From IMG/VR virus record IMGVR_UViG_2778261574_000002: 64,000 nt of DNA. One strand, 5' to 3'. The notes below the pieces were generated by a model. That model worked only from the letters and a program-made list of their open reading frames with translations, did no database searches and was not told where the DNA came from. The stretch comes from a virus. Lineage: Duplodnaviria; Heunggongvirae; Uroviricota; Caudoviricetes. A program made the translations under genes and the position numbers. This document shows positions 25,356-26,330 of the stretch, in pieces (position 1 is the stretch's first letter; each line of letters starts with the position of its first letter).

Positions 25356-26330
25356 TTATCCGTTACCGCACGACGGTTTCTGCGTGATAAACGTTTCAAG
25401 CATCTTTTCCGCGATTGCCGACCAGGTGTGACACTGGACCTTTTCAGCATTTTTCAGGCGATCAACGCGAGCAATCACCTCATCCCAATCAATCCGCGAC
25501 TTGATAACCATATGGTTCACCAAAGCCAGGCGATCTGGCGGAAGGCAATCGGACGGCGTTAATATCAACGCCCCACACATTGCCGCCTCAAGAACAGTTA
25601 ATCCAAGGCTTTCGGGATGCGTAACGATAAAAACGTCACTCTTACGCAATTCAGCTGCAAATTCGGTTGCTGGTACCGGCGTCCGTCTGTATGGAGTTAC
25701 CGAAATATTCCCCGGATCAATGGTAACCAATCCGTCATCGGTCAACGTTCTGGCCTCATACGGAACAGTCAGACGCTGAAGGTTCATAAGGATACTTAAG
25801 GAGTGATCAAACCCACTAACATCAAATGCAGCGTGGTCTACAAAAATACGCAGAACATCGTCTGTTTTGGTTTCCAGATGGAACAGCTCCTGATTCGCTG
25901 CCCATCCAACATGTTTGTTAAAGCGATTATGACGCTCTAACCTGCCGGGATTATCCAGGTACCGCCAGGTATCATCGCGGACAGTAAAAGTAATATCAAC
26001 TGGTGCCGAATCCAGCATAGAACCGTCGTATACCTGAGCTACCCATCCAGTGAATCGACGACGCAGTTGCACGCCTATTTCCCTGGGCACCGTAGTAAAA
26101 TACCGCAATCCTGGCGCTAAAATGGCTTTCGCAGAACACGAGAGCGCAGCGGTCAACACAGCTTCAACATAATCCTCCGGGCTTTCGACGCCGGGAGAAT
26201 ATGGACGATGGTATTGCAATGTTACCCCAGCCTCACTAAAGGCGCAGGCCAGGTTGTAAGCCCACATTTCCGTATATGTTTTCACATCACTGATAGCTTC
26301 AAATTTTCGCCCAATGATCAGGATGTTCAT
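25356..26330 (-). CDS. GT-B fold glycosyltransferase-like protein
   Basis: 324 aa; C-terminal HPESLGLTVLEAAMCGALILTP resembles the GT1/GT4 signature. Confidence 0.5.
   Translation of the reverse strand: MNILIIGRKFEAISDVKTYTEMWAYNLACAFSEAGVTLQYHRPYSPGVESPEDYVEAVLTAALSCSAKAILAPGLRYFTTVPREIGVQLRRRFTGWVAQVYDGSMLDSAPVDITFTVRDDTWRYLDNPGRLERHNRFNKHVGWAANQELFHLETKTDDVLRIFVDHAAFDVSGFDHSLSILMNLQRLTVPYEARTLTDDGLVTIDPGNISVTPYRRTPVPATEFAAELRKSDVFIVTHPESLGLTVLEAAMCGALILTPSDCLPPDRLALVNHMVIKSRIDWDEVIARVDRLKNAEKVQCHTWSAIAEKMLETFITQKPSCGNG

Follow-up and report, generated by a model that had tools for sequence, protein, structure and literature searches.

Glycosylation of phage virions has reportedly been described in mycobacteriophages, in work that is said to be due to Freeman et al. 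2023, with the glycosyltransferases encoded beside the structural genes. In P1-type phages, the gene analyzed here has two named counterparts, dbn of phage P1 and glt of phage P7, which are the same gene in the same place, between the helicase gene ban and gene 5. In the P1 reference record, dbn is P1_gp078, labelled 'function unknown, possible glycosyltransferase'. The protein is called 'glycosyltransferase family 4 protein' by NCBI and belongs to PHROG 2518, labelled 'unknown function'. Literature searches on dbn, pmgO and pmgQ returned no paper on function, only essentiality tables and a transcriptome note. In P1, dbn, pmgO, pmgP, ppp and pmgQ were each scored as non-essential in CRISPRi and knockout experiments (PMC10695390).

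Here we show that dbn is linked with three other P1 genes, pmgO, pmgP and pmgQ, in a conserved, sometimes fused cassette. This link is new; we did not find it in publications. The gene lies in a 64,000-nucleotide stretch of viral DNA (hereafter, the window), where an intact open reading frame of 324 aa extends from ATG to TAA exactly over positions 25356..26330 of the minus strand. Its product is 96% identical to P1 Dbn (YP_006544.1) and 95% identical to P7 Glt (AAQ07543.1). In a megablast search, 1.7 kb around dbn were 96-98% identical to 18 P1-like phages (P1, P7, SJ46, RCS47 and others), which identifies the window as a phage or phage-plasmid of the P1 type. The P1 record already lists the gene as a putative glycosyltransferase, so that the observation made in the first-pass annotation was correct and not new; that annotation did not recognize the gene as the annotated P1 dbn, nor the three partner enzymes 7-9 kb away. 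The window dbn starts 8 codons downstream of the start annotated in P1. The possibility that P7 glt is a truncated gene was rejected, given that tblastn finds the full 324-aa frame intact in P7; the short P7 annotation therefore reflects the choice of start codon. The features of the window are as follows, by position:

16869..17564, minus strand: pmgQ, encoding a 231-aa predicted GT8-like (GT-A, DxD) glycosyltransferase; the most constant neighbor of dbn-like genes
17561..18253, minus strand: ppp, lambda-type Ser/Thr phosphatase gene, in the slot of dbn (Pfam Metallophos, 9e-16; P1 annotation; gene-order comparison)
18235..18861, minus strand: pmgP, encoding a 208-aa MptE/Maf-like paralog of PmgO, a proposed partner enzyme (51-56% identical to its cassette counterpart)
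18759..19421, minus strand: pmgO, encoding a 220-aa MptE/Maf-like (sialyltransferase-fold) protein, a proposed partner enzyme (42% identity to the second gene ahead of the dbn-like gene in P2-like prophage L011)
19563..19579, plus strand: C1 operator Oppp (Op83), ahead of pmgN-pmgO-pmgP-ppp-pmgQ (P1 annotation; differs only in the first base, T for C)
24678..25310, plus strand: gene 5 (hub), the convergent neighbor of dbn
25309..25337, no strand assigned: hairpin in the interval from dbn to gene 5, bordered by an A-run and a U-run (direct RNA folding)
25356..26330, minus strand: dbn, encoding a 324-aa predicted GT-B (GT4-like) glycosyltransferase, homolog of P1 Dbn and P7 Glt
25587..25613, minus strand: EX7E codons (E240-S-L-G-L-T-V-L-E248), donor-site signature of retaining GT4 enzymes (alignment, hhalign)
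26327..26345, minus strand: ribosome-binding site of dbn (AAGGAG) and overlap of its start codon with the stop codon of the preceding frame (ATGA), suggestive of translational coupling (sequence inspection)
26327..26632, minus strand: 101-aa ORF between ban and dbn, sharing a transcription unit with dbn (PHROG 12809, E=1.9e-46)
26629..27999, minus strand: ban, encoding a DnaB-type replicative helicase; lies upstream in the operon ending in dbn (Pfam DnaB_C, E=1e-107; DnaB, 5e-35; P1 annotation)
31137..31164, no strand assigned: bivalent C1 operator Oban/Op72ab, from which the ban-dbn operon starts (two operator matches that overlap, one with 0 and one with 2 mismatches)

The stop/start overlaps TGATG and ATGA join ban, the 101-aa ORF and dbn on the minus strand; AAGGAG is found 5 nt upstream of the dbn ATG, which itself overlaps the stop codon of the preceding frame. 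Unlike in P1 and P7, dbn of the window is split from ban by the additional 101-aa ORF, which is absent from both of these phages and from all 18 P1-like phage records, and is carried by 52 of 438 P1-like plasmids and 14 of 80 viral contigs. Convergent with dbn, on the plus strand, are the P1 tail and baseplate genes 25, 7, 24, 6 and 5, so that the location originally noted for this gene, between the helicase operon and the baseplate genes, holds. The hairpin between dbn and gene 5 (-18.9 kcal/mol, z = -5.45) was seen by direct folding, with none of 200 shuffled sequences equally stable, and was not listed by a scan for consensus terminators. It is a probable bidirectional intrinsic terminator for the convergent dbn and gene 5.

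At the level of the fold, the glycosyltransferase label of Dbn is firmly supported by structural modeling. The structural matches of a high-confidence Dbn model were exclusively GT-B glycosyltransferases, with 260-282 residues aligned, and the model has the architecture that defines this fold, a pair of Rossmann-like alpha/beta domains enclosing the active-site cleft. Because the matches span both domains, the fold claim is confirmed beyond the C-terminal motif. In a Foldseek search of a viral structure library, the leading function-named matches were glycosyltransferases, apart from a few multidomain proteins annotated as methyltransferases, and the best match was a Tupanvirus enzyme (TM 0.80). 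WaaG and WaaB were not the best structural matches of the model.

Sequence profiles gave weaker signals of the same kind. The C-terminal GT1/GT4 signature that had been proposed for this protein is real, located at aa 221-307 (Pfam Glycos_transf_1, PF00534; E=2.2e-5), and weak, scoring 24.5 bits against a gathering cut-off of 26.4 bits, so that Dbn falls short of the CAZy GT4/PF00534 gathering threshold. At E<=0.1, PF00534 is matched by only 18 of 58 members of the Dbn family, and a precomputed PF00534 match exists for the cluster representative of P1 Dbn. NCBIfam yielded a marginal match to the glycosyltransferase domain of sucrose-phosphate synthase. All these profile matches, although weak, are to GT1/GT4 families, and none placed the protein in a non-glycosyltransferase family. 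Comparison of the Dbn profile with PDB sequences produced only a 40-residue match over the EX7E segment and a spurious match to KtrA. Aligned by hhalign to the single sequence of E. coli WaaG, Dbn was matched only in the EX7E segment, with E240 and E248 paired with WaaG E281 and E289; nothing was aligned between Dbn and WaaS.

The Dbn family is small and isolated, comprising 422 proteins at E<=1e-3 in a profile search of 1.84 billion representatives. A collection of 5.8 billion proteins contained 73 relatives of Dbn, down to 28% identity, and the alignment of 58 of these (28-96% identical) includes 16 invariant residues: D102, W143, A144, D165, H166, D175, F234, T237, H238, E240, S241, G243, L247, E248, G253 and L268. 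Both glutamates of the EX7E motif are therefore present in 58 of 58 family sequences. With this motif invariant and the model matching only GT-B enzymes, the initial description of the protein as GT-B glycosyltransferase-like is borne out. The C-domain of the family, by secondary-structure position (after the strand at 160-164 and before the helix at 177-184), contains invariant D165, H166 and D175 in place of basic residues. In GT4 enzymes, the donor diphosphate is bound by an Arg/Lys pair near the start of the C-domain, between its first strand and first helix (for example, R208/K209 in WaaG, R196/K202 in PimA). With D165, H166 and D175 at what appear to be the Arg/Lys positions, the donor chemistry of Dbn may differ from that of canonical GT4 enzymes. 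R216 is nearly invariant and could act as a substitute for such a pair.

Two scans of viral contigs with the family alignments returned almost only P1-like contigs; they contributed few further contexts of dbn-like genes and served for population statistics. The gene is intact, with 324 codons, in 80 of 80 P1-like viral contigs retrieved, and its median pairwise dN/dS among these copies is 0.11. The 42 variable amino acid positions among the 80 copies include none of the 16 family-invariant residues, E240 and E248 among them. These patterns indicate that Dbn is functional and maintained. The identity to P1 Dbn, the 80 intact copies and the low dN/dS led us to reject a chance ORF, and the latter two a pseudogene. 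A scan of species-representative genomes detected only 3 loci with dbn-like genes.

Gene neighborhoods were fetched for distant relatives of dbn. In P2-like prophage L011, a dbn-like gene is located between the portal gene and gpA, preceded by two genes of about 180-200 aa and followed by one of about 220 aa. When these L011-type neighbors were compared with the window by tblastn, all three had clear homologs, 7-9 kb from dbn, at 18759-19421 (42% identity), 18235-18861 (51-56%) and 16869-17564 (39%). In P1, these genes are pmgO, pmgP and pmgQ, respectively, each annotated with a 'putative morphogenetic function'. The contiguous order pmgO-pmgP-dbn-pmgQ, with frames that overlap or abut, is shared by L011 and coliphages EP_H11 and IME392; by locus handle, the four genes are contiguous in L011, L178 and L179, and all four are clustered in L018, an uncultured phage with a T4-type spanin. 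The window and P1 each combine all four gene families in one genome; there, the four genes are not contiguous, with dbn 7-9 kb away and ppp between pmgP and pmgQ. The P1 order is pmgN-pmgO-pmgP-ppp-pmgQ, ppp taking the position held by dbn in the cassettes of other phages, and in a Citrobacter-type phage-plasmid, pmgO-pmgP-pmgQ are contiguous and dbn is 5 kb off. Among P1-like contigs with enough flanking sequence, pmgO is present in 70 of 73.

A pmgQ-like gene was detected within 3 kb of the dbn-like gene in 10 of 10 non-P1 phage loci for which DNA was available, namely, five marine-type large phages, one siphophage, L011, L018, EP_H11 and IME392. The five marine-type phages encode 1-3 pmgQ paralogs each along with dbn and, at the loci compared, lack pmgO and pmgP, so that the full set of four is not present everywhere. 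Two siphophage contigs have the dbn-like cassette embedded in the head-tail gene block, together with methyltransferase and sulfotransferase genes; in L011, it belongs to the cargo region and adjoins a KAP NTPase gene. The cassette was found also in apparently virulent coliphages. Furthermore, metagenomic protein P0269 (522 aa) is a natural fusion of a PmgO-like domain (aa 19-210, E=5e-25) with a Dbn-like domain (aa 219-514, E=7e-33).

PmgP has a fold of the Maf/sialyltransferase type, which occurs in enzymes that transfer CMP-activated ulosonic acids. PmgO (PHROG 4603) showed a sub-threshold match to Pfam MptE-like (E=4.9e-5), and the fold matches of PmgP are Maf, MptE and CstI-type enzymes, with mammalian sialyltransferases scoring lower. 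The archaeal pyrophosphokinase MptE matches PmgP as well as the Maf and CstI-type folds do; given that the MptE-type fold includes pyrophosphokinases, PmgO and PmgP need not be glycosyltransferases. PmgQ is 33-42% identical to the gene that follows the dbn-like gene in L011, L178, L018 and L014, and 26-33% identical to the marine-phage copies. A profile of 37 PmgQ relatives matched Skp1 alpha-galactosyltransferase (6mw5, E=2.3e-9), a GT8 enzyme (5gvv, E=4e-5) and glycogenin (E~2e-4). The invariant D79-x-D81 and the H208-G-x-P motif of PmgQ correspond to the metal ligands of GT8; together with the structure matches, D79-x-D81 and H208 suggest that PmgQ is a GT8-like retaining GT-A enzyme.

Dbn-like genes were also identified in two bacterial capsule loci, where they follow an MptE-like gene either directly or after one 64-aa ORF. 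The MptE-like genes of both loci showed a faint match to WaaZ_KDO_III, and one of the loci additionally encodes KpsF-, KdsA- and KdsB-type (Kdo-synthesis) proteins. E. coli K-12 makes CMP-Kdo and, to our knowledge, no nonulosonic acids; in this host, PmgO and PmgP would therefore most plausibly use Kdo as their donor.

Both operons of the window that contain cassette genes are preceded by C1 operators. The 28 nt at 31137-31164 are identical to P1 Oban, an operator annotated in P1, where the ban operon is repressed by C1 in lysogens according to the annotation. With a C1 operator at the head of each operon, joint derepression on induction would be expected from the annotation. In a preprint, dbn is reported to be deregulated in an hfq mutant.

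Taken together, these observations suggest the following scheme. Dbn would be an active cytoplasmic GT-B enzyme of a small, divergent GT4-like clade that takes a sugar from a host nucleotide-sugar via the EX7E donor site, most likely with retention of configuration, as in GT4, and adds it to a growing glycan rather than to DNA. It probably does not act on its own and would perform one step of a four-enzyme line with PmgO, PmgP and PmgQ. PmgO and PmgP would probably transfer a CMP-activated ulosonic acid, in E. coli K-12, CMP-Kdo, whereas PmgQ, a GT8-like enzyme with a DxD motif, would probably use a UDP-hexose. In P1-type phages, dbn appears to have been relocated to the last position in the ban operon, with ppp now in its place, and induction of the prophage would switch on all four genes together via the C1 operators. 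The module is accessory and dispensable for plaque formation. On balance, we favor the view that Dbn catalyzes one step of such a non-essential glycan-assembly module of four enzymes, with the donors and the joint action as suggested above. A more specific version is possible and is offered only tentatively: PmgO, PmgP, Dbn and PmgQ of P1 might constitute an unrecognized pathway that, on induction, uses host CMP-Kdo and UDP-sugars to assemble a glycan with Kdo or a different ulosonic acid in it, either on virion proteins or, in the infected cell, on a capsule primer or the inner core of LPS. The pathway would be encoded by a mobile cassette common to P2-like, virulent coliphage, siphophage and marine lineages.

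Through the link between these genes, four P1 genes whose function is unknown (three are named 'putative morphogenetic') come under one testable glycan-assembly hypothesis, in a phage that is genetically tractable and for which knockouts exist. The result would also apply to the P2-like, virulent and marine phages that carry the cassette and, if the hypothesis is true, would reveal a new type of phage glycosylation built on Maf/sialyltransferase-fold enzymes. A virion acceptor would bear on phage immunogenicity and stability, and an acceptor in the host envelope, on receptor masking and exclusion.

The candidate acceptors named in the first-pass annotation were a virion protein, host surface polysaccharide and DNA. 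One or more phage structural proteins seem the leading candidates, slightly ahead of an envelope glycan, without commanding a majority of our expectation. A virion acceptor is suggested by the presence of the cassette inside the head-tail block of the two siphophage contigs and in apparently virulent phages, and by the fact that the nearest relatives of the partner enzymes act on proteins (Maf, glycogenin, Skp1 GalT, GlyE). A host envelope glycolipid or polysaccharide (for instance, a capsule primer or the inner core of LPS) is a serious contender as well, in view of the bacterial relatives in capsule loci and the cargo-region location of the L011 cassette. Any other acceptor appears less plausible than either of these, and DNA is unlikely, the least likely of the three originally named. 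Glycosylation goes unmentioned in the P1 virion proteome paper, which did not look for it.

Several other explanations for Dbn have to be weighed against a joint four-enzyme module. Dbn could convert the host surface by itself: on the cytoplasmic side of the inner membrane, it would attach a single sugar to the LPS core or to an intermediate of capsule or O-antigen, with the altered receptor resulting in lysogenic conversion, or in receptor masking during lytic growth. We consider this unlikely because the ban operon is repressed by C1 in lysogens, the cassette also occurs in apparently virulent coliphages and in siphophage head-tail modules, the partner genes are conserved with dbn and once fused to it, and WaaG and WaaB are not the top structural matches. 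Glycosylation of a small molecule (a metabolite, cofactor, signalling nucleotide or antibiotic-like compound) is what the top structural neighbors of Dbn carry out; even so, we rate this activity for Dbn itself as somewhat less probable still.

Two further explanations are very improbable in our assessment. Dbn might be a DNA glycosyltransferase that counters restriction, like the T4 alpha- and beta-glucosyltransferases or the HY126 5-hydroxycytosine enzyme, which share the GT-B fold and phage encoding with it. However, about 20 GT4 enzymes score better as structural matches than the DNA glycosyltransferases, the partner proteins have a sialyltransferase fold or are GT8-like, the bacterial relatives belong to capsule loci, and the neighborhoods fetched showed no base-hydroxymethylating gene next to a dbn-like gene. 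P1 DNA is protected by the Dar proteins and by methylation, and we know of no hydroxymethylated or glycosylated bases in it. An equally slight chance is given to a catalytically dead Dbn with an accessory or structural role alongside the Ban helicase, as might be suspected from the name ('downstream of ban'), from the stop and start codons that overlap or abut within the ban operon and from the apparent replacement of the usual diphosphate-binding basic residues. Against such a role, relatives of 28-96% identity share the EX7E motif and 14 further residues without exception, which fits a conserved active site; the 101-aa ORF parts ban from dbn in the window; and, in the neighborhoods fetched, no DnaB gene adjoins a dbn-like gene outside P1-type phages, on which ground a functional link between Dbn and Ban was rejected.

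Compared with known systems, the predicted enzyme of the four-gene module that we favor is most similar in fold to retaining GT4 enzymes of the GT-B type, such as PimA, BshA, WaaG and sucrose-phosphate synthase, and shares with them only 8-15% identity. At 324 aa, it is shorter, has no obvious N-terminal Gly-rich loop and, as far as can be deduced from position, carries invariant Asp and His where the phosphate-binding Arg and Lys are expected. The DNA glycosyltransferases of T4 and HY126 are less similar to Dbn in structure and differ in gene neighborhood. PmgO and PmgP differ from Maf, WaaZ (Kdo III transferase) and CstI/CstII in being single-domain proteins of about 200 aa, with sub-threshold sequence matches. 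Among the genes for region-2 (serotype-specific) enzymes of group-2-type bacterial capsule loci, Dbn-like genes that are 35-40% identical follow MptE-like genes; those loci include ABC-exporter genes, whereas P1 has no export genes. The mycobacteriophage virion-glycosylation sets rely on enzyme families other than those of the P1 cassette, and we know of no counterpart of the Maf/sialyltransferase-fold partners among them, but the two are alike in being phage-encoded, in involving multiple glycosyltransferases and in being non-essential.

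The slot between pmgP and pmgQ holds a phosphatase gene, ppp, in P1-type phages, whereas in the cassettes of other phages it is occupied by dbn, the gene for a GT4-like glycosyltransferase. Because ppp sits in the exact slot that dbn takes in those cassettes, the arrangement suggests that the two genes exchanged places by rearrangement. The corresponding gene of the window, and the gene just upstream of the pmgN-Q operon, are:

17561-18253, minus strand: ppp, Ser/Thr phosphatase gene, located between pmgP and pmgQ in P1-type phages
19586-20164, minus strand: pmgM

The annotated frames of pmgO and pmgP share about 100 nt (18759-18861, minus strand), and the same overlap is present in the P1 record. 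Given that some database versions of PmgP are only 178-183 aa long, the real pmgP start may lie downstream of the annotated one. PmgM shows a weak, sub-threshold match to the VRR-NUC nuclease domain (E=3e-4), for which reason "morphogenetic" is probably a misnomer for this gene, too.

In phage P7 (L002), the dbn counterpart is named "glt":

L002 2858-3856: "glt", annotated as 287 aa

Its annotated start corresponds to the residue equivalent to M38 in P1 Dbn numbering, and the full 324-aa frame is intact in P7 (tblastn); the short annotation looks like a matter of start-codon choice.

In the window, an additional small gene is inserted between dbn and the helicase gene ban:

26327-26632, minus strand: 101-aa ORF, PHROG 12809

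Stop and start codons overlap between this ORF and its neighbor at each end. The ORF was not found in P1, P7, or any of the 18 P1-like phage records, and is carried by 52 of the 438 P1-like plasmids and by P1-like viral contigs (14 of 80). The only other relatives, with 34-38% identity, come from unrelated coliphages and a Cronobacter phage.

In large marine-type phage contigs (L003, L005, L007, L009 and L180), the dbn-like gene lies inside a larger sugar cluster, flanked by RecA/terminase genes and, on the other side, a DEAD-box helicase gene. The cluster includes genes for a CTP_transf_like+cupin nucleotidyltransferase, a polysaccharide pyruvyl transferase and methyltransferases; GT8/GT47-like genes (weak matches); between one and three paralogs of pmgQ; and an ORF of 150 aa that is conserved. 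Several Dbn-like proteins recovered by the family profile search (among P0306, P0317, P0320, P0337, P0339, P0346, P0355, P0361 and P0363) are fusions: the Dbn-like domain is joined to a methyltransferase domain in P0320, accompanied by an alpha/beta-hydrolase-like region (weak match) in P0317, and duplicated in tandem in P0306. A C-terminal domain without a Pfam match, about 190 aa long, recurs in six of the proteins.

The upstream stretch of the ban operon (28279-30478, minus strand) differs in content from that of P1. Where P1 carries tciA/B/C, the window encodes a 78-aa hydrophobic ORF and the following gene:

28382-29209, minus strand: SPFH/Band-7 lipoprotein-like gene (Pfam E=1e-30)

The tRNA genes differ in number as well: P1 has three, this stretch five (Met-CAT, Ser, Thr, Tyr and Arg).
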